Source of the DNA: Candidatus Nanoarchaeia archaeon | GTDB taxonomy: Archaea > Nanobdellota > Nanobdellia > JAQUSD01 | Direction: 5' to 3' | NCBI GenBank assembly: GCA_028715295.1 | Contig: JAQUSD010000001.1 | Span: 8,404 to 72,403, forward strand | Length of the DNA stretch: 64,000 nucleotides | Shown: positions 12,007 to 21,855 of the stretch, one piece after another | Layout: each line of letters begins with the position of its first letter | How positions within the stretch are numbered: the stretch's first letter is position 1 | Notes under the pieces: generated by a model | What the model was told of the DNA's origin: nothing | The model's input: only the letters and a program-made list of their open reading frames with translations | Databases searched by the model: none | Made by a program: the position numbers and the translations under genes

Positions 12007-13722
12007 ATGAATGCACTTGCTCAGCCTGATTTTTCATCAGGAACCAATGACAGAAAAGCTGAAATGACAGAGGAACTGCTTAGTCTTTCACTTTCAGTTA
12101 TTGAATCTTTTTCAAAAAACAACATAATAAACAAAAATATGTCCGGCTTCAGGAACACTTCCATACTTCTTGATTATTTAAATTCGCTTTCAGCAAAGGA
12201 TAGGGTGTTATGGAATGTGTACACAATAGCAACATCACTTAATGCTTTTGCTTCAATTAAGAAAGGGGAAACCTTAGGTGATTCTGACTTGGCTTTTGAA
12301 AACCTTGTTTTTGTACTTAACAATGCAGGCGTTCTTGAATCAGAAGAGTGGGTTAACAGCGTTATGTTTTACAATGGTGAAAAAATTGGGATTGAAAAAC
12401 TGAAAACAGGAAAAAATCTATCTGACGCGCTTGTTTCGCTTCTTGAAGATGATTTAAGCACCGAGTTAATAGAAAATTCAGAGTACGACGAAAATGAAAA
12501 TAAGTTTCTTCTTAGCACGGCTTTTTTTGATAAAAAAACAAAAGACGACTACAGAAGCAAAGCAGTTGAACTTCTCAAAAGAGGTATTGATAATTTTACA
12601 GCGGATTCTATTTCAAAAACCCTTAATACAACAGCATCCAAAAGCTACTCAATAATTAAATTTCTCAAAGGGCTTGATGCTGTTGAAGAATCAGGGAAAT
12701 ATAATGGTTCAACAGTTTATTCTCTTAAAAAAATAAGCGGTTTAGAATCAAAGTTATTTTTTGGGAAGCAGGGATTTGAACCTGCTGAGGATATTGATTT
12801 TGAGCTTGATCCACTATGCACCTACAGAAAAAACGCATACGAAATCGCTGACAAAGTTGAAGTAGGCGAAACAATAGCACCAAAAGACTTTGGCTCAGAC
12901 TACACTGCTTTTTCATTTCTTACAAAAATAGGTGTTCTTGAAAAAACAGGGAGGGGAAAATATAGTGTAATATCCAATCTTAAGACAGATGATGACTTAA
13001 AATATAAAATAAAATACTGTTCAAAAGAAAATGAAGAAATTTCAAAAATACAGGATTATGAAGCTGTAAACTTAATTCTTAAATATGCTGATTATACAAA
13101 AGAGGATGAGATAAATGACTCATTGGTTGAAAAGTTAGGACTTTCTCTTTCAAAAAATAAAATAAAAAAGGCGCTTGTGCTTATTGAAAAATACGGAGAT
13201 TCTTATCTTAAACCAAATTATAATGATTTTAAGAAAACAAAAGAAAATGAAATTAATGATGTTTTCATGTATGAACTTGAAAGCTGTTCTAAAAAGGGAG
13301 GCGTTCCAAAGCAGGAATTTTACAGGAAGCTTGCTTATTATGTAAAAGAAAAAATTGACGAACGATTAAACAACCTTGAAGAAAAAGGGTATATTAAAAA
13401 AATAGGTAAAAAAGAAAACCTTGTTTCAGCTAAAAAACATAAATATGATTTCCCCCAGGAAAGGCTGAATAAAAACAGCGTTCTTGTAAAAAAACTTCTT
13501 GATGAAACAAGACAGACTTATTTTTTTAATGCCGAAATTTCAGAAACTTCAAAAAAAGAACTTAAAAGTTATGCTGAAAAGACAGGATGTTCTAAGGAAA
13601 TAATTGATGAGTTTAGCAGTGATTACTTTGAGAAAAACTATCCTAATTCAGATTATCTTTATAAAGCCCTTAAAAAACTAAAGCATGACATGAGCGAGCT
13701 TTATACAATGATGTCTATTTAA
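12007..13722 (+). CDS. hypothetical 571-aa protein with several winged-helix-like repeats
   Basis: No catalytic motif. It has recurrent ~70-aa modules ending in wH-like segments (VYSLKKISGLESK, TAFSFLTKIGVLEKTGRGKYSV, KLAYYVKEKIDERLNNLEEKGYIKKIG). Its stop codon overlaps the convergent NTPase stop at TTTAAA. Confidence 0.4.
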   Translation: MNALAQPDFSSGTNDRKAEMTEELLSLSLSVIESFSKNNIINKNMSGFRNTSILLDYLNSLSAKDRVLWNVYTIATSLNAFASIKKGETLGDSDLAFENLVFVLNNAGVLESEEWVNSVMFYNGEKIGIEKLKTGKNLSDALVSLLEDDLSTELIENSEYDENENKFLLSTAFFDKKTKDDYRSKAVELLKRGIDNFTADSISKTLNTTASKSYSIIKFLKGLDAVEESGKYNGSTVYSLKKISGLESKLFFGKQGFEPAEDIDFELDPLCTYRKNAYEIADKVEVGETIAPKDFGSDYTAFSFLTKIGVLEKTGRGKYSVISNLKTDDDLKYKIKYCSKENEEISKIQDYEAVNLILKYADYTKEDEINDSLVEKLGLSLSKNKIKKALVLIEKYGDSYLKPNYNDFKKTKENEINDVFMYELESCSKKGGVPKQEFYRKLAYYVKEKIDERLNNLEEKGYIKKIGKKENLVSAKKHKYDFPQERLNKNSVLVKKLLDETRQTYFFNAEISETSKKELKSYAEKTGCSKEIIDEFSSDYFEKNYPNSDYLYKALKKLKHDMSELYTMMSI

Positions 13723-16469
13723 ACCACATCGGGGTTTATCATTTCAGTTATTATCTGCCTTACAGCATCAGTATAATCAAGCCTTTCATTATTTTCATCT
13801 TTCTTTTCAATTGCAACTATACTTGATTTCCTGTAAAGTTTATTTCCTATTACATCCCTCATGTCGGCACCTATTTCTGCAAAGTTGTAAATAACTTTGA
13901 AAAAAGAGTATGCCTTAATAGCCTCATCAAATGAATTAAGTGTTGAAATTCCTGATTTCCAGAAAGGATTATTTGGTTTTGACTTAAACGCAACATGGGT
14001 TTTCAAATAAGTAAACCCATTTTTTCCGTAATCTGCTTTTGAAGCAAGATCCATAATGTCTTTAAGATTCTCACATATTGGAAGTGTTTTTGTTTCTTCA
14101 TCTTCTGTTTTTTCCTCGATTGAATTTAAAAAATAATTGCTTTCAGATTTGTAGTTTATAATCGGTGAAACAATTGACTCCAATTTTAAAGAATTTCCTT
14201 CTCCAAGATTTCCCAATGTCATAAATTCCATCTTATTCTTCAGTATGTTAATATATTTGTTTATTATATTGTGGTTTCCTGAATCTTCTGCAAGGTGCTT
14301 GAATCTTTCATATATCCTGTCTTTCTTGTTTATTACAATTTTTTCAAGCCGGTCATAAACCTTTTTTTTATCTTTTGATTTTGATTTTTTAGCTATCTCC
14401 TTAACAAGAAACCAAAAACTGTCTCCTGACTCAGCAGTTTTATCATCAGACTGTTCAAAAATTCTGTTAAAAAATGTATTAAGAACATCTATGCATACTC
14501 TTGAATTAAGGTAAGAATCAGCAATTCCTTCTTTAGATTCTATTAATTTTTTAACAATTTCCTGAGACATTCCTTTTTCAAGAAGTTTAGGAGCAAGCTT
14601 TTCCTTTATATTTTTTTTGAATTCATCGCTTATTGTATCTGCCACTCCTTTGTTTACTTCGTAAATCGCCTCTATGTCAACATCTTCTGAATCCTTACCA
14701 AGCACAGCCATTTGTTCATAAACATAACCCACGCTGTTTTTGAAAGCATTGTTCATAAATCCTGAAAGCTCAAAATCAAGACTTTTTTTAATTTCATCTG
14801 CAATTATAAAATAATTGGTTCTTGAATTTTTTAAGTTATCAAGAATTTTTTCAATTTGTGAATCAATATTGCATACTTCATTATAAGAAGCTTTATTTTT
14901 ATAAGAAGTCTTTATAAAAACACCAGGCATCCCAAGACTGTTTCCATCAACAAACCAGTCAATATTAAGATTTTCAAGCTTCTTGCCTATTGCTTTTGAA
15001 AGAAGTTTTGAGGAGTATTCCTTTCTTTCTTTTTGTGTCATTTTCTTATATATTGGCTTGTCAAGTATAATGTCTGCAAGTTCTTTTTCATCTTCTTCTT
15101 CAGCTATTTTTGGGAAATCCTCTTCTCTCACTGTTCCACCTATTTCAGTGAACCATACCTTCCTGTTGTCAGGAGTTGTAAATCCATTTGGTGTTATTGC
15201 AGTTGCTTTTCTTTCCTTAAGGTCAACATACTCCTCCCCGAAGAGATTAAGGGCTTTTTTTGCATAAATATCTCTAAGATACTCTTTCTTAACTTTTTCA
15301 GAAACCGGAATATCAAGCACAAAATCAACACCTTTTTCAGGGGATATTACATCAGGCATAAGTTTTTTGCAAAGCTTCAAGTAAGGGGCAATTAACTTTA
15401 TGTGTTCACCAAGAGCTTCTGTTACATTGATAATATCACTTTCAGCCACTTCATTCAGAGAATCACTTAGTTCATACTTCCTGCCACCCATCCATGGAAG
15501 AATAACATAGAATTTTCCTTCTGAAAGGTTCTTCTTTGAAGTTATATACTTGACCATAAAACCTGGAAGAGTTTCAACAGCAAGCCTTGCAAGAGCTTCT
15601 GAGTAATAATCAAATTCTTTTTTGCTTAAGACAATTCTGCTTGCAAATAAATAATCAGAGATTTTCTGTATATCCTGATGGAAGAAATCGCTCTTTGCAA
15701 GTGTAGAGATTACGTCTGAAACTTCTCTTCTGTAATTTTTATCATTCATATTTGCAATCTGGCCACAGAGCTTCCATGTTGGAAGAAACTCAGAATCATC
15801 AGGAGAAAGACTTTGGACAATTTTATTTATTCTCTCTTTCCTTTCCATTAAATAAAGACTTAATTTATCCATGTTAACCATACCTTCAAGTTTTGAACCT
15901 ATCTTAGAGATTTTTTCTTCAGTGATATTATTGTACTTCCCCTCCTTGTTTTCAAGTATTTCGTTCAGTTTTCTAATTTCATCAAGACTTCCTTTTTTAA
16001 AAACATCAATAAGATTCCTGCTTATTTCAGTGCTTACAGCGTTTTTAAGAAAAGGTTCAGAGGTAGTTCTGTTGGTCATATACACGTTTAAAAAATCGTC
16101 TGTAAATTCATTGCCTTTGAACGTCATTAAAGCATCTTTAAGTAGTTTTTTTAAATTGGTTATTTGTGGATTCTGAAATCCTTCATTAAGTAATTTTTCA
16201 ATGAACTTTAATGATTCTTTATCTGATGTTTCAGACATTCTCCAGAACTGCTTTGCAAAATCATCTGCGGACATATCATTAATTTTATCCAAAAGTTCTT
16301 TTTTACCACTCCCGAATTTAACGTAATAGTCAATAAGGCTGTTCTCATCGCTTACTATCTTTGAGATATTTTTAATCCCAAACGTGTTGATAAAATCAAA
16401 AACACTTAAAAAAGTAGACTTACCTGAAGAAGGCTGTCCTCCAATAATATGATTACTTTCCCTTACCAT
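13719..16469 (-). CDS. large (916 aa) P-loop NTPase of unknown family
   Basis: N-terminal Walker A (IIGGQPSSGKSTFL) resembles the dynamin/septin-type G1 motif. I found no downstream DxxG or N/TKxD G-motifs. The rest is lysine-rich with no recognisable domain. It lies 33 nt downstream of the SPFH gene on the same strand. Confidence 0.45.
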   Translation of the reverse strand: MVRESNHIIGGQPSSGKSTFLSVFDFINTFGIKNISKIVSDENSLIDYYVKFGSGKKELLDKINDMSADDFAKQFWRMSETSDKESLKFIEKLLNEGFQNPQITNLKKLLKDALMTFKGNEFTDDFLNVYMTNRTTSEPFLKNAVSTEISRNLIDVFKKGSLDEIRKLNEILENKEGKYNNITEEKISKIGSKLEGMVNMDKLSLYLMERKERINKIVQSLSPDDSEFLPTWKLCGQIANMNDKNYRREVSDVISTLAKSDFFHQDIQKISDYLFASRIVLSKKEFDYYSEALARLAVETLPGFMVKYITSKKNLSEGKFYVILPWMGGRKYELSDSLNEVAESDIINVTEALGEHIKLIAPYLKLCKKLMPDVISPEKGVDFVLDIPVSEKVKKEYLRDIYAKKALNLFGEEYVDLKERKATAITPNGFTTPDNRKVWFTEIGGTVREEDFPKIAEEEDEKELADIILDKPIYKKMTQKERKEYSSKLLSKAIGKKLENLNIDWFVDGNSLGMPGVFIKTSYKNKASYNEVCNIDSQIEKILDNLKNSRTNYFIIADEIKKSLDFELSGFMNNAFKNSVGYVYEQMAVLGKDSEDVDIEAIYEVNKGVADTISDEFKKNIKEKLAPKLLEKGMSQEIVKKLIESKEGIADSYLNSRVCIDVLNTFFNRIFEQSDDKTAESGDSFWFLVKEIAKKSKSKDKKKVYDRLEKIVINKKDRIYERFKHLAEDSGNHNIINKYINILKNKMEFMTLGNLGEGNSLKLESIVSPIINYKSESNYFLNSIEEKTEDEETKTLPICENLKDIMDLASKADYGKNGFTYLKTHVAFKSKPNNPFWKSGISTLNSFDEAIKAYSFFKVIYNFAEIGADMRDVIGNKLYRKSSIVAIEKKDENNERLDYTDAVRQIITEMINPDVV

Positions 16470-17998: not shown

Positions 17999-18736
17999 AT
18001 GCTTACTGACTGCCATGCACATCTTGATTCAAAAGAATTTGACAAAGACATAGATGAAGTAATCAAAAGAAGCAATTGTGTAATCATAAACAATGGACTT
18101 AATGCAGAAAGCAACAGAAAAACTCTGCAACTTGCTGAAAAATATGAAAATGTTCTTCCTAGCCTTGGGTTTTATCCATGGGATGCTGTCAGGGATGGAA
18201 TTAAAAAAACTGGAAAGGAAATTGAATTTATCTCAAGACAGAAGATTACTGCTATTGGAGAAATTGGTTTGGACTTTAACATAGAATGTACTAAACAAGA
18301 CATAGAACTCCAGAATTTAGTTTTTAAAAAATTCCTTAAACTTGCTGAAAATATGAATGTTCCTGCAATAATACACACAAGAAAAGCTGAGAAAGAGGTT
18401 CTTGAGGTTCTAAAGAATCACAAAGTTAAGGCAGTTCTGCACATGTATTCGGGAAGCCTTGGTCTCGTAAATGATTTCTTAAAACAAGGATGTTATTTTT
18501 CAATACCTCCACTTGTATACAGGACGAAAAGTATACAGAAACTCGTTGAAATGATTCCTGTTAACAGACTTCTCACTGAAACAGACGCCCCTTATTTAAG
18601 TCATGAAAAAGGAATAAGAAACGAACCTGCATTTGTCAGATATGCTGTCAGCAAAATAGCTGAGCTGAAACATATCAGTTATAAAGAATGTGAAAAAGAA
18701 ATTTATTCCAATTTTAAAAAAGTGTTCGGGATTTAA
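17999..18736 (+). CDS. tatD: TatD-family metal-dependent deoxyribonuclease
   Basis: MLTDCHAHLD start, EIGLDF, HTR, HMYSG and ETDAPY motifs of the TatD/TIM-barrel hydrolase family. Confidence 0.85.
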   Translation: MLTDCHAHLDSKEFDKDIDEVIKRSNCVIINNGLNAESNRKTLQLAEKYENVLPSLGFYPWDAVRDGIKKTGKEIEFISRQKITAIGEIGLDFNIECTKQDIELQNLVFKKFLKLAENMNVPAIIHTRKAEKEVLEVLKNHKVKAVLHMYSGSLGLVNDFLKQGCYFSIPPLVYRTKSIQKLVEMIPVNRLLTETDAPYLSHEKGIRNEPAFVRYAVSKIAELKHISYKECEKEIYSNFKKVFGI

Positions 18737-19212
18737 AAGCGTTCTTTTCTTTCGAACTTTGCAATATTAACTGTTTCCAGTTCTTTTGGACATAAATACA
18801 ATATTTCCTTAATAAGAGCGTCATCGCTGTTTCTTAGGTAATAGTCTGCAATAACAGGATGCTCCCCTTTGCAGAGTTTACATTTCTTTTTTAATCCGGG
18901 GTTTTCAGAAAGAACTGCATCGTCCTCTCTTATTTCCTGCACAAACCAGTAAGGTCCGTTATAGGATTCAAAGAATTCACAGATGTATTCGACACTTTTT
19001 CCACTTAAAGTTCCAGGATAAACATGGAATTTCTTTCCCCTGTTTTTGTAATCTTCTATTTTTTCAAATCCTGCAAGAATTTTGTTGATTTCTTCGAGTT
19101 CTTCAAGTCCTGATTTCTGCGCGTTTAAAAGAATTTCAAGAGTTTTTATTGTCATCTGTTTAATAGCAGTTTTGCTTTTTAATCTGTTTTTATCAAAACC
19201 AAGTTCAGACAT
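18733..19212 (-). CDS. hypothetical protein with C-terminal CxxC...CP pattern
   Basis: 159 aa with CKLCKGEHP ... YLCP, possibly Zn-binding. No family assigned. Confidence 0.35.
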   Translation of the reverse strand: MSELGFDKNRLKSKTAIKQMTIKTLEILLNAQKSGLEELEEINKILAGFEKIEDYKNRGKKFHVYPGTLSGKSVEYICEFFESYNGPYWFVQEIREDDAVLSENPGLKKKCKLCKGEHPVIADYYLRNSDDALIKEILYLCPKELETVNIAKFERKERF

Positions 19213-19268
19213 AACTAATTATCTTAGATTAAGATTTATAAAGGATGTGTAATCAAAAACATTTTTAA

Positions 19269-19874
19269 TTGAATAGAACATACTATTACTTAATGAATGA
19301 AATTATAAGAAATGATATTCTTGACGTTCTAAAACAAGCTGTTGTTCTTGTAAAGAAAGGTGATTCTGAAAGTGTAAAGAGTTTAAGCAACAGGACAATA
19401 CACAATGCAAGCACATTTCAGGACAGCCATTCAATAACCTGGGCTGTGCTTATCTATTCCCTTGCAAAGATAATGGAATCAAATATAGGCAACAAAACGG
19501 CAAAATGGATTAAATTCAGGGATAAAATAATATCTCTTCTTGAAAAAATGACTTCGAGCCTTAAACATAAAGATTATACTTCTTATGAGTACGCACAAAA
19601 AACAGCGCTTGATGTTATATCAAAATATGACAAAAAATACTCATTATATGTAAGATGGATACTTGAAAAAGCAAAAATCAAGAAAGCAACTCGCATTTAT
19701 GAACATGGTATATCTCTTGGCAGGGTTGCTGAACTTCTTGGGGTCAGCAAATATGAAATCATGGATTATCTTGGAGCTACAAAAATACACGAAAAACAGT
19801 CAGGAGTAAAAGAACCTTCTTCAAGACTGAAAATAGCAAATAAACTGTTCAGGAGAGATGATAAAAATGAATAA
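19269..19874 (+). CDS. protein with C-terminal UPF0175-like HTH (antitoxin-like) domain and ~130-aa N-terminal extension
   Basis: C-terminal GISLGRVAELLGVSKYEIMDYLG resembles the UPF0175 antitoxin signature (ISLGKAAELAG.S..EF). It overlaps the next gene by 17 nt. Confidence 0.4.
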   Translation: MNRTYYYLMNEIIRNDILDVLKQAVVLVKKGDSESVKSLSNRTIHNASTFQDSHSITWAVLIYSLAKIMESNIGNKTAKWIKFRDKIISLLEKMTSSLKHKDYTSYEYAQKTALDVISKYDKKYSLYVRWILEKAKIKKATRIYEHGISLGRVAELLGVSKYEIMDYLGATKIHEKQSGVKEPSSRLKIANKLFRRDDKNE

Positions 19875-20550
19875 ACTTCTTGTTCTTGATTCAAGCACAA
19901 TAATTTCAATGGCTTCAAGCTGCCTGTTATGGGTATTTAAAGAGCTTAAATCTGTTTCAGGAGTTAGATTTTTTATAACTCCTTCTGTTAAGTTTGAAAC
20001 AATAGATAATGCAGTAAATAAAAAGAGGTGGATGCTTGAAGCACTGCGAGTAAAGATGCTGCTTAATGAGGGCGTTTTTGAACTTAATGAATCAAAGGAA
20101 ATTGACAGCATGTGCAGTGATATAATGAAATATTCAAATAGCATTTTCTTCAGGGGAGGGGAACCAATACATATAATTCATAAAGGTGAATGCGAGATTC
20201 TTGCTCTTTCAAAAATAATTGGTGCAGAGGTCATAGGCGTTGATGAAAAAACAACAAGACTGCTTATTGAGGATTACAAAGCGCTTTGGAGCATTCTTGA
20301 AAATAAACTTCACACAAAAATAAGTTTTCATGAGCAGAACTACAAAGCATTCATGGATATGATTGGGAAGAAATACATTATACGTTCAACTGAAATAGTT
20401 GGCTCTGCTTTTCAGCAGGGGATACTTCAGAAAAGAGTAAGAGGTTACCCTAAAGAAAGAGACGTTATAGAAGCTTCTCTGTGGGCGCTTAAATTCAGTG
20501 GTTGTGCAATTTCCGAAAATGAAATAAAGAGATATGTAAGCAAGATATGA
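19858..20550 (+). CDS. PIN-like (DUF3368-like) protein, putative toxin partner
   Basis: N-terminal LLVLDSSTIISMA is a PIN first-strand Asp motif. Further acidic residues occur (ELNESKEID, GECEILA, GVDEK). It is 230 aa, larger than typical DUF3368. Confidence 0.35.
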   Translation: MIKMNKLLVLDSSTIISMASSCLLWVFKELKSVSGVRFFITPSVKFETIDNAVNKKRWMLEALRVKMLLNEGVFELNESKEIDSMCSDIMKYSNSIFFRGGEPIHIIHKGECEILALSKIIGAEVIGVDEKTTRLLIEDYKALWSILENKLHTKISFHEQNYKAFMDMIGKKYIIRSTEIVGSAFQQGILQKRVRGYPKERDVIEASLWALKFSGCAISENEIKRYVSKI

Positions 20551-20697
20551 TGATAAAAAATGACAGAAGAATATAAGAACAACTCGGATTATAAACTAAA
20601 AAGTGATGAGATATACTGGAAGATGAAAGAAGCTACTGCGCCTCTTGCTCAAAAAATGGAAGAACTAAGGGAATTGATGAAAGGTTCTGAAAAGGAC

Positions 20698-21855
20698 TCA
20701 CTTGAAGATTCTAAAAAGCTCATTAAGTTTTGAAGTTCTTTCACTGCCTGCAATTCCTATTTTCATAAAAGGGCATCTGTATGCTACTGCAAGATGTGAC
20801 AATATCGAATCTTCAGTTTCCTGGGAACGATGTGACAGTATAGGGATTATCCTGTTTTTTTTGCACAATTCAACAAATTCTCCTGTTTTAATAAGAGAAC
20901 CTACTTGATTTGGTTTTACTATTGCAGAATTTCCATAATTCATATTTAATGCTTTTTTAAGCTTGTCTGGATTTGTTGCAAGCAAATCATCACCACAGAT
21001 CAAACATTTCTTGCCCACAGAACTGTAAAGTTCTGAGAACATTTTTACATCATTTTCGGAAAAAGCATCCTCCAGATAATAAATATCATACTTATCTATT
21101 AATTTGATTAAATAATCCATGTATTTGCTCTTTGAAAGCTTTCTGTTGTTTATAGTATAACTCCCAGACTTAAAAAAATGATTAGCAGCAACGTCCGCCC
21201 CCAAGACAACTCTTTTTTTAGTTTTGTCAGCAATTTCAGAAACGATGCTACTGAGTTCAGAAAGTGATTTCTCATTTGATAAATTAGTTATAAGTGCATT
21301 TTCTTGATTTCTTCCAAATACTTTTATTTTTTTTTGAAGCATGCTGTATGCAAGTGAATTTATAGCAACTGCCTGTCTTATATTATCAGGATTTAAGCAT
21401 GTTATAAGAAACTCCTGAAATTCAGGCCCATTGCCGAAAGAGTGAGAGCCCCCCCCAATAACATTGCTTAATATATTCGGCATACTCACAGAATTATTGT
21501 TAATAAGCAAGTATTCAGGAACACCCATCTCAGAAGCCATTGCCTTGATAATAGCATATTCAACAGCAAGAACTGAATTGCCCCCGTACTTTTTAAAAAT
21601 TTTTTCGATTTCATTCAAAACTGACAAATCATTGACAACATAATTCTTCATAACCTCTGACATATTTCTGTTTATTGCATCAACACAATATTCAACATCA
21701 TCTTTTGCAAATTCCTGTATTTCTGCACTTCCTTTGCTCGTCCCTGAAGGAACTGACGCATAGAATTTTCCTTTTGTAGTTTCAATTTCAATCTCAATTG
21801 TATAGTTAGATGAGGAGTTAAGAATTTTTCTTGCAATAAGACTTCTTATTATCAT
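20698..21855 (-). CDS. eno: enolase (phosphopyruvate hydratase), divergent short form
   Basis: N-terminal MIIRSLIARKILNSSSNYTIEIEI...SVPSGTSKGSAE. Active-site region ILSHRSQETEDS and VKPNQVGSL match the enolase signatures SHRSGETED and KxNQIGT. Confidence 0.75.
   Translation of the reverse strand: MIIRSLIARKILNSSSNYTIEIEIETTKGKFYASVPSGTSKGSAEIQEFAKDDVEYCVDAINRNMSEVMKNYVVNDLSVLNEIEKIFKKYGGNSVLAVEYAIIKAMASEMGVPEYLLINNNSVSMPNILSNVIGGGSHSFGNGPEFQEFLITCLNPDNIRQAVAINSLAYSMLQKKIKVFGRNQENALITNLSNEKSLSELSSIVSEIADKTKKRVVLGADVAANHFFKSGSYTINNRKLSKSKYMDYLIKLIDKYDIYYLEDAFSENDVKMFSELYSSVGKKCLICGDDLLATNPDKLKKALNMNYGNSAIVKPNQVGSLIKTGEFVELCKKNRIIPILSHRSQETEDSILSHLAVAYRCPFMKIGIAGSERTSKLNELFRIFK

Follow-up and report, generated by a model that had tools for sequence, protein, structure and literature searches.

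The closest described counterparts of the two genes considered here form a predicted type II toxin-antitoxin pair, in which a UPF0175 protein (PF03683, COG2886) is combined with a PIN-domain protein of the COG2405/DUF3368 type (PF11848) (Makarova et al. 2009, PMC2701414; Matelska et al. 2017, PMC5499597). UPF0175 proteins have been found exclusively in the gene context of COG2405 PIN proteins (Matelska 2017, PMC5499597). In the window, that is, the whole 64,000-nucleotide stretch of DNA that was analysed, two overlapping genes on the same strand present a similar picture: a UPF0175-like gene lies directly upstream of a COG2405-type PIN gene, in the order of an antitoxin ahead of its toxin, and most of 85 related loci repeat this order. 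Both genes are currently annotated as "hypothetical protein" only. Compared to the canonical pair, the window proteins fall below the Pfam thresholds, and the enlarged pair is not patchy in its distribution but lineage-wide, vertically inherited, set among housekeeping genes and recurrently fused.

Mechanical reading frames for the two proteins are present at 19269..19874 (+ strand, 201 aa, TTG start) and 19858..20550 (+ strand, 230 aa), and the 17-nt overlap given in an earlier note on this DNA holds for these boundaries. The starts that are favoured are ATG 19293 for protein 1 and ATG 19867 for protein 2, since the family HMM alignment of protein 1 begins at residue 9 of the 201-aa frame, the NCBI gene models comprise 193 aa (PHW96_00160, protein 1) and 227 aa (PHW96_00165, protein 2), and a Shine-Dalgarno-like GGAGAG can be read at 19852..19857, 9 nt before ATG 19867 and within the 3' end of the protein 1 gene. 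It follows that the protein 1 gene (19293..19874) and the protein 2 gene (19867..20550, with the mechanical start at ATG 19858) overlap by 8 nt (ATGAATAA) and not by 17; both genes and all features within them are on the + strand. The GGAGAG motif supports 19867 as the probable start of protein 2 as well as a translational coupling that would supply both proteins in fixed proportion. Both reading frames are real genes, far beyond chance, because each has hundreds of full-length homologues with E-values to 1e-60 and below; the homologues of protein 1 are 181–200 aa in length with E-values down to 1e-62.

Protein 1 may be considered in terms of an N-terminal helical domain, a UPF0175-like helix-turn-helix (HTH) segment and a C-terminal helix. 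The N-terminal domain (19293..19658), a confident helical bundle in the AF2 model, belongs to no known family and bears a conserved motif made up of S32, H37, S40, Q43, D44, Y55 and K59. While canonical UPF0175 proteins have a short N-terminus, protein 1 has this novel domain in its place; the extra domain proposed in the earlier note is therefore present, with a size of about 120 aa and not 130. A HEPN-like identity for the domain was rejected on account of an R-x2-H spacing, an arginine that is not conserved and a fold search that gave no support. The HTH segment (19665..19790) spans residues 125–166 of the 193-aa protein with the core KKA..IYEHGISLGRVAELLGVSKYEIMDYLG, and its residues K131, H138, G139 and S141 are conserved at 100%. 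A UPF0175 motif had been placed at the very end of protein 1; the motif, GISLGRVAELLGVSKYEIMDYLG, was located instead at residues 147–169 of the 201-aa frame with 32 more residues after it, including a conserved R...F helix. This C-terminal amphipathic helix (19815..19850) covers residues 175–186 in the AF2 model, with R178 conserved at 91% and F186 at 94%. In fused homologues, the helix precedes PIN strand β1 by only a few residues, and it is a candidate element by which protein 1 may bind the PIN protein.

The relationship of protein 1 to UPF0175 is a remote one. PF03683 matched protein 1 with an E-value of ~1e-4 (9e-5) and 22.4–22.5 bits over profile positions 18–60 of 75, which falls below the gathering cut-off of 27.9 bits. 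The same profile was matched (E<0.1) by 31 of 36 relatives, at best with an E-value of 4e-6. With hhalign, the bona fide UPF0175 protein of a locus designated L022, which scores 59.5 bits on PF03683 and thus above the cut-off, aligned to columns 119–170 of the family alignment with a probability of 96.8% (E 3e-10). These comparisons identify a distant UPF0175 HTH in the C-terminal half of protein 1, and the UPF0175 identity suggested earlier survives as remote homology though not as a Pfam assignment. The structure predictions that had been recommended for both proteins produced the N-terminal bundle and a PIN fold; over the HTH and the C-terminal part of protein 1, however, AF2 confidence was low (pLDDT 40–66), so that the predicted HTH fold rests on sequence homology. 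Sequence-profile searches of the PDB with both proteins gave nothing informative, only designed helical repeats and chance matches, and NCBIfam searches gave matches at chance level only.

Protein 2 has the Rossmann-like α/β/α fold with a parallel β-sheet that is typical of PIN domains. Its LLVLDSSTIIS segment, read in the earlier note as a PIN-like strand, is strand β1 leading into the first catalytic aspartate, D8. The acidic tetrad D8, E44, E108 and D126 is complete and aligns with the acidic positions of the canonical COG2405 PIN protein. Across 263 family members, these residues are conserved at 97%, 99%, 93% and 100%, respectively, and E127 and E135 are conserved at 100%. The first aspartate, kept at this level in the enlarged family, is replaced by asparagine in the canonical paralogue of L022. 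An hhalign comparison showed that the homology between the canonical 155-aa COG2405-type PIN protein of L022 and the protein 2 family extends over the whole length and takes in the DUF3368 region at the C-terminus. Protein 2 belongs to the COG2405/DUF3368 lineage of PIN domains and is predicted to act as a metal-dependent endonuclease.

As had been noticed, protein 2 is larger than the usual partner, and the difference to the canonical DUF3368 protein of L022 was measured as 72 aa where about 80 had been estimated; solved PIN/VapC domains (119–155 aa) are shorter by ~70–110 aa. The earlier note attributed added domains to both proteins. While this is the case for protein 1, no domain was added to protein 2, whose extra length comes mostly from two stretches inserted within the PIN core, of ~20 and 35–40 aa relative to the canonical COG2405 PIN. 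With approximate boundaries from hhalign, insertion 1 (20125..20181, residues ~87–105) lies ahead of the G-E108 motif and contains an invariant N91. Insertion 2 (20260..20364, residues ~132–166) follows directly after the catalytic D126/E127 and was modelled by AF2 as helix-helix-strand-helix. It holds the invariant E135, with R131 immediately ahead of it, and may serve as an active-site lid or as a substrate-binding element.

After insertion 2, protein 2 continues into a C-terminal module equivalent to DUF3368 (20365..20538, residues 167–224) with the pattern I-R173-S174-T-E ... L-K-F-S-G212-C213-A-I-S-x-x-E219-I, in which R173 (100%), S174 (98%), G212 (99%) and E219 (97%) are strongly conserved. 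The module aligns with residues 101–150 of the canonical protein, whose own PF11848 match covers residues 112–152. A search of protein 2 with PF11848 (gathering threshold 27.3 bits), either at full length or as a C-terminal fragment, gave no match even at E<=10, and scans of three homologues were likewise empty; precomputed PF11848 matches among relatives were mostly "faint" or "weak". A missing DUF3368 model was considered as the cause of the empty scans and rejected, given that the canonical L022 protein is matched; the protein 2 family is too diverged. The proposal of a DUF3368-type partner is therefore borne out by full-length homology and not by the Pfam profile.

The nearest structural relatives of protein 2 are VapC-type RNases and, because of this, RNA would be a more likely substrate than DNA. 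Compared to VapBC of M. tuberculosis (VapBC26, PDB: 5x3t) and Shigella (PDB: 6sd6), the sequence identity is only 9–18% and the window PIN protein is ~90 aa longer. Instead of an AbrB, RHH or Phd antitoxin, the partner is an HTH protein of the UPF0175 type that carries an additional domain; stable fusions exist and there is no sign of mobility. The archaeal and eukaryotic housekeeping PIN nucleases Nob1, Utp24/Fcf1 and HARP RNase P show no specific sequence relationship to protein 2, have structural scores below those of VapC and COG2405 proteins and are without a dedicated UPF0175-type partner.

A further comparison may be made to the PADLOC system PDC-S70, which probably corresponds to the canonical short pair, judging from model sizes of 94 aa and 161–162 aa. 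Its profiles gave weak matches, with E 0.0055 to the HTH segment of protein 1 and with E 3e-5 to the PIN portion of P0098, a fused homologue. Such matches raise an antiviral role, of an abortive-infection or sensor-effector kind, in which the N-terminal domain of protein 1 would sense a viral or stress cue and free or activate the PIN nuclease, as in fused toxin-antitoxin-type defence proteins. The strongly conserved polar patch of the N-terminal domain would fit a ligand- or protein-binding site, and fused forms with a potential sensor and effector in one chain exist. Yet the window protein 2 had no PADLOC match and PDC-S70 is itself just a candidate system. No defence-island or mobile-element context was observed in the window or in 87 related loci, where the neighbours of the enlarged pair are housekeeping genes, and a PHROG search for phage families gave no matches. 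In addition, the surface of the N-terminal domain is highly conserved, the opposite of what is seen in an arms-race sensor, and inheritance is vertical. Of the explanations considered, defence appears the least probable.

The breadth of the two families became clear from homology searches. Protein 1 is represented by 1,016 clusters at 90% identity and protein 2 by 369 clusters at 50% identity (E<=1e-30), and the pair occurs in no fewer than 476 species-representative genomes, mostly of Woesearchaeota/Nanoarchaeia. The enlarged size is common to the whole family. Among the 85 related loci, which were retrieved with a tight 10-sequence alignment, the PIN gene is situated 50 nt or less downstream of the protein 1 gene in 73, and in 60 of those the two overlap by exactly 4 nt. 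In one locus (L001), the partners are separated by four unrelated genes. The opposite arrangement, fusion of protein 1 and protein 2 into a single chain, was encountered in 11 proteins, with at least eight independent changes of state; one fusion was verified as a single open reading frame on a 72-kb contig, and one fused clade has diverged to 45–53% identity.

The enlarged pair is vertically inherited. Divergence in protein 1 goes together with divergence in protein 2 (Mantel r 0.88), and its mean is equal in the two proteins (0.55 and 0.53, respectively). Against host genes, the correlations for protein 1 and protein 2 were 0.94 and 0.92 with HerA, 0.79 and 0.74 with an Mre11-like protein, and 0.58 and 0.64 with an ArvA-like GTPase; as these genes are physically linked to the pair, transfer of the whole block would give the same signal. 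A canonical short UPF0175/DUF3368 pair is present 1.4 kb from the enlarged pair in the L022 genome, from which it can be concluded that the enlarged pair is a separate paralogous lineage. In three related genomes, protein 1 is paired with a DUF460 nuclease in place of the PIN protein.

In the window, the neighbours of the pair encode TatD, Alba, enolase and PEP synthase, with XPD ~7 kb upstream. Elsewhere the pair is found with the exosome operon, Rpo7-Spt4, ProRS, RNase HII, HerA-Mre11 and ArvABC. The GC content of the pair is that of its flanks, with no compositional anomaly. A link to replication origins by way of OapABC neighbours was dropped, as present knowledge assigns those neighbours to a vesiculation operon, ArvABC. 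Promoter and terminator scans yielded nothing of use, the models being bacterial and not applicable to archaea.

Some of these neighbours suggest an accessory nuclease of DNA repair or replication, in which protein 1 would target the PIN domain to DNA together with the products of the neighbouring HerA/Mre11, RNase HII, XPD or MCM-like genes. HerA follows the pair on the same strand in 34 of the 85 loci, and in 18 an Mre11-like gene does so; RNase HII precedes the pair in 16, and a short MCM-like ATPase and XPD are divergent in 12 and 5, respectively, XPD also being present ~7 kb upstream of the pair in the window. The DUF460 partner of one lineage, a resolvase-like nuclease (PMC3985635), is in keeping with such a role. 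A single HerA-Mre11 operon that includes the pair was nevertheless rejected, since 58–460 nt or a CorA gene, and sometimes opposite-strand reading frames, intervene between HerA and the pair. Neither HerA nor Mre11 is found beside the pair in the window, more distant family members occupy the exosome, Rpo7-Spt4 and ProRS contexts, and common ancestry within a single order may account for the synteny. The closest structural relatives are VapC-type RNases. A function in repair or replication appears improbable.

The reading of the pair as a genuine type II toxin-antitoxin locus that has been fixed in the lineage deserves more attention. In this case, protein 2 would be a growth-arresting PIN RNase similar to VapC, and protein 1 a labile antitoxin that blocks its action, uses the HTH to repress the operon and is broken down upon stress or infection. 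The gene order, with an HTH gene upstream of and overlapping a PIN gene, and the homology of both partners to the predicted UPF0175/COG2405 pair (PMC2701414, PMC5499597) are exactly as in predicted type II modules. The catalytic residues of protein 2 are intact. The low model confidence at the C-terminal end of protein 1, as seen in many antitoxins, would also fit a partly disordered one, and the exchange of the PIN protein for DUF460 resembles the mix-and-match behaviour typical of toxin-antitoxin modules. The gene order and ancestry, the low model confidence and the exchange for DUF460 run counter to the stable complex that is described below. Chromosomally fixed toxin-antitoxin loci exist.

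What does not agree with a toxin-antitoxin locus is the manner in which the pair is inherited and organised. The 64-kb window has one copy, as does each of the related loci, and nothing observed in them points to a mobile, patchy, multi-copy distribution; inheritance is instead vertical and lineage-wide in housekeeping contexts. Co-divergence is tight, and neither partner evolves faster than the other. The repeated and long-lived fusions are hard to reconcile with differential degradation of an antitoxin. In L001, four unrelated genes stand between the partners. Upstream of protein 1 (19150–19330), no palindromic operator was found in the form of an inverted repeat of 7 nt or more, a search that short or imperfect operators could escape. 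The literature searched gave no experimental evidence for either the canonical UPF0175/COG2405 pair or the enlarged family. Taken as a fixed type II locus, the pair is a rather unlikely candidate; the classical mobile form of the toxin-antitoxin reading is only partly supported, in its architecture and ancestry. Descent from UPF0175/COG2405 stock remains the best reading of the pair's origin, and the alternative of a "regulatory pair", which had also been raised, is compatible with the data.

The explanation that we moderately favour is a two-subunit nuclease module that forms a stable complex and that Nanoarchaeia-type DPANN archaea (Woesearchaeota, Pacearchaeota and relatives) carry as a conserved trait of the chromosome, passed on by vertical descent. 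In this complex, protein 2 would be the metal-dependent PIN endonuclease with its lineage-specific insertion of ~35 aa beside the active site. Protein 1 would be a dedicated partner, held on the nuclease by the UPF0175-type HTH and C-terminal helix that were inherited from an ancestral "antitoxin". The new helical domain, with its conserved polar patch (S, H, S, QD, Y, K), may contribute a regulatory or targeting function. We infer that the two proteins associate physically and that protein 1 gates or directs the nuclease, by inhibiting or targeting it; it is apparently not a labile antitoxin that is degraded to free a poison. A domesticated, stable complex fits better than a mobile addiction module because the pair is lineage-wide (at least 476 genomes) with one copy per locus, has housekeeping flanks and a matching base composition, co-diverges with host genes, shows equal rates in both partners and is recurrently and stably fused. 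More tentatively, the pair may be a near-core housekeeping complex domesticated from a toxin-antitoxin ancestor, in which the N-terminal domain of protein 1 acts as a regulatory or substrate-targeting module that can be plugged onto a PIN nuclease in most lineages and an RNase H-like DUF460 nuclease in one, the complex serving an essential step of RNA processing or DNA maintenance that is specific to these reduced-genome archaea.

DPANN archaea have very small genomes, much of whose content is unannotated. From this study, two "hypothetical proteins" can be placed in a large, lineage-spanning family as a predicted PIN endonuclease and its dedicated HTH partner. If the pair is an ordinary fixed toxin-antitoxin locus, the gain would be one of annotation, extending UPF0175 and DUF3368 to members that fall below the Pfam thresholds. 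If instead the pair goes back to a toxin-antitoxin module that has been domesticated, it would show clearly, in nature, how a selfish element of two genes can become a stable, sometimes fused host complex. A new helical domain, found alongside nucleases of two different folds, would then be defined as well.

The protein 1 and protein 2 reading frames lie exactly where the earlier note had placed two overlapping forward-strand ORFs, at 19269..19874 (+, 201 aa, TTG start) and 19858..20550 (+, 230 aa). Proteins identical to the pair are deposited from a Candidatus Nanoarchaeia MAG as PHW96_00160 (193 aa) and PHW96_00165 (227 aa), both annotated "hypothetical protein". Family HMM alignments begin at residue 9 of the protein 1 ORF and residue 4 of the protein 2 ORF, and a GGAGAG motif is positioned 9 nt upstream of the ATG at 19867; the genes are therefore likely to span 19293..19874 (+) and 19867..20550 (+). 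The reported overlap of 17 nt holds for the mechanical ORFs, but the true overlap is likely 8 nt.

An archaeal TATA-box-like sequence, TTTATAAA, occurs at 19235-19242, 51 nt upstream of the ATG at 19293, within the 80-nt intergenic region between protein 1 and a divergent 159-aa ORF; such a match arises easily by chance in a genome of 32% GC. A search for a palindrome upstream of protein 1 found no inverted repeat of 7 nt or more in 19150-19330. The divergent ORF (18733-19212, -) contains a CKLCKGEH motif, is without a family match (best LAGLIDADG_1 at E 0.03) and is absent from the recurring neighbours of other loci. On the other side of the pair, a 57-aa Lys/Glu-rich ORF (20560-20733, +) starts 10 nt past the protein 2 stop and overlaps the 3' end of the enolase gene, which is convergent with it. 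The ORF matches no family, does not belong to the neighbour families that recur in other loci and is perhaps not a genuine gene.

The UPF0175 assignment of protein 1 is supported as a remote homology. The Pfam UPF0175 model matches residues 125-166 (E 9e-5, 22.4-22.5 bits) but falls under its 27.9-bit cut-off. The match is also found in 31 of 36 protein 1 relatives, and hhalign places a bona fide UPF0175 protein from another archaeal locus, L022, on this segment at a probability of 96.8% (E 3e-10). The homology is therefore real, though distant. Since AF2 confidence is low for the HTH and the C-terminal helix, the HTH fold rests on sequence homology. The HTH motif is not the end of protein 1, as had been claimed, since 32 more residues follow it; R178 and F186 are conserved in the C-terminal helix. 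A profile of the protein 1 domain alone retrieved 1,016 protein clusters. Among the best 120, the domain is found in no other context: 118 share the ~186-aa architecture, while the other two are shorter entries (133 and 138 aa).

The L022 locus, from a Woesearchaeota genome, also carries a canonical short pair (L022:7369-8135, +), 1.4 kb downstream of the enlarged pair of that genome. It consists of the UPF0175 protein (~100 aa from an internal Met; PF03683, 59.5 bits) and, with a 4-nt overlap, a 155-aa DUF3368-type PIN protein (DUF3368 match at residues 112-152, 24.9 bits versus a cut-off of 27.3). This PIN can be aligned along its whole length, over 148 columns, to the family of protein 2 (hhalign probability 89.5%, E 2e-6). 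From the alignment, the R173-S174...G212-C213-x-I-S module at the protein 2 C-terminus is the DUF3368 region itself, and the extra length is mostly two internal insertions at approximately residues 87-105 and 132-166, the second directly after the catalytic D126/E127. The suggestion that a domain had been added to protein 2 is not upheld; apart from this, the overlap and the position of the HTH motif, the earlier description of the two ORFs was accurate. The acidic PIN positions correspond to D8, E44, E108 and D126, conserved in 97%, 99%, 93% and 100% of 263 distinct family members; in the same set E127, E135 and R173 are invariant, N91 and G212 reach 99%, and R131 and S174 reach 98%. While the first catalytic Asp is replaced by Asn in the canonical short PIN of L022, the protein 2 family retains it. 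By the alignment and the conserved acidic residues, protein 2 is a PIN protein of the COG2405 type, diverged and enlarged, that keeps an intact active site and is predicted to act as a nuclease.

The enlargement is common to the whole family and lineage. A protein 2 profile search against 1.84 billion representative proteins gave 701 matches, 369 of them at E<=1e-30, and a pattern scan in which each GTDB species was represented by a single genome identified relatives in 476 genomes, from which 80 loci were retained. Protein 2 relatives are 217-258 aa and protein 1 relatives 181-200 aa in length. Nearly all of the 80 loci are labelled Woesearchaeota, Nanoarchaeia or Nanoarchaeota; some come from "uncultured Methanosarcinales" MAGs, where mislabelling is suspected because those loci are so similar to the others.

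The two genes are closely linked. Among 88 loci inspected, 85 could be judged, having both a protein 1 homologue and sufficient downstream sequence, and in 73 of these the PIN gene follows on the same strand within 50 nt, with an exact 4-nt overlap in 60. The PIN gene is 51-300 nt away in seven loci and further off in two. At one of these two, the split locus L001:3074-6717, both partners are kept with four unrelated same-strand genes between them (a methyltransferase, two His_Phos_1 phosphatases and a GNAT acetyltransferase). The PIN gene is absent in the remaining three, from closely related archaeal MAGs (L008:4977-6661, L010:534-2218 and L020:4965-6652), where a 195-aa protein 1 homologue shares a 4-nt overlap with a 366-aa DUF460 protein (PF04312, E 2e-32) with a coiled-coil tail. 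DUF460 proteins are confined to archaea and are predicted to be resolvase-like nucleases with an RNase H fold (PMC3985635), and these loci appear to be a swap of the partner nuclease, the same HTH partner being combined with a different nuclease fold. Directly after the DUF460 gene, a 390-aa ORF (L008:6681-7853, -) resembles IS200/IS605 TnpB/OrfB by eye, with a Zn-ribbon CxxC...CxxC near its C-terminus; it is the sole mobile-element-like gene noticed near any family member.

Natural protein 1-protein 2 fusions make up 12 of the best 150 of the 701 matches. Ten are 403-431 aa long and two are shorter (321 and 336 aa), apparently by N-terminal truncation; PIN strand beta1 follows the protein 1 C-terminal helix almost immediately. 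One fusion was confirmed within a 72-kb contig, where a single ORF encodes it and Alba, S17e and TFIIB lie alongside. On a rough neighbour-joining tree, at least eight state changes are needed to account for the 11 fusions retained after alignment filtering, and one fused group is still fused after diverging to 45-53% identity; fusion has therefore recurred and is stable.

The surroundings of the pair are always housekeeping genes. In the window these are Alba, TatD, enolase and PEP synthase, with an XPD helicase ~7 kb upstream; between the helicase and an SPFH/Band-7 gene are two large ORFs (12007-13722, +, 571 aa; 13719-16469, -, 916 aa) with no Pfam match at E<=1e-5. Other loci present an exosome/RNase P/proteasome operon, an Rpo7-Spt4-S24e-S27e operon, ProRS with ribosomal proteins, RNase HII, eIF5A, HerA-Mre11, a short MCM-like ATPase and OapABC. 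A replication-origin role was considered from the last of these and set aside, since OapABC is now ArvABC, a vesiculation GTPase operon (PMC10927574), and gives no such pointer. Across the Woesearchaeota loci L009-L087, an ArvA-like GTPase with OapB and OapC is divergent upstream in ~20, a 388-aa MCM-like ATPase is divergent from the pair in 12, and RNase HII is upstream in 16. Downstream, HerA occurs in 34 loci and a Mre11-like phosphoesterase in 18, often with a CorA-like gene between. HerA lies 58-460 nt from the pair or behind the CorA gene, and in these flanks the stretch from the PIN gene to HerA showed no evident NurA-like gene. The HerA linkage is read as synteny rather than a shared operon; that the pair is a DNA-repair accessory nuclease is considered unlikely.

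Pairwise divergences of proteins 1 and 2 are strongly correlated (Mantel r 0.88) with equal means (0.55 and 0.53). Both also follow the divergence of neighbouring host genes, with r of 0.94 and 0.92 for HerA, 0.79 and 0.74 for the Mre11-like gene, and 0.58 and 0.64 for the ArvA-like GTPase, respectively. The GC content of the pair is that of its flanks. A phage-family search gave no matches and PADLOC at best weak ones, to the candidate system PDC-S70. A role as a defence module is likewise considered unlikely.

The ancestry of the enlarged pair, as a derivative of the UPF0175/COG2405 pair, is clear. The latter is a predicted type II toxin-antitoxin system (Makarova et al. 2009, PMC2701414; Matelska et al. 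2017, PMC5499597); no experimental test of it or of the enlarged family was found in the literature searched. The enlarged family does not behave as a mobile addiction module would, and differs from one in its lineage-wide vertical distribution, equal partner rates and housekeeping contexts, its coexistence with a canonical short paralogue and its tolerance of permanent fusion. Because of these features, a stable nuclease-partner complex is favoured, and it is somewhat probable that within it an active PIN endonuclease is gated or targeted by protein 1, the new N-domain serving as a regulatory or targeting element. A genuine toxin-antitoxin module that has become fixed is a serious rival, though a doubtful one. 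The enlarged pair represents a large, hitherto unannotated DPANN subfamily of the UPF0175/COG2405 pair, with an HTH partner whose N-terminal domain is novel, two PIN-core insertions, recurrent fusions and one partner swap.
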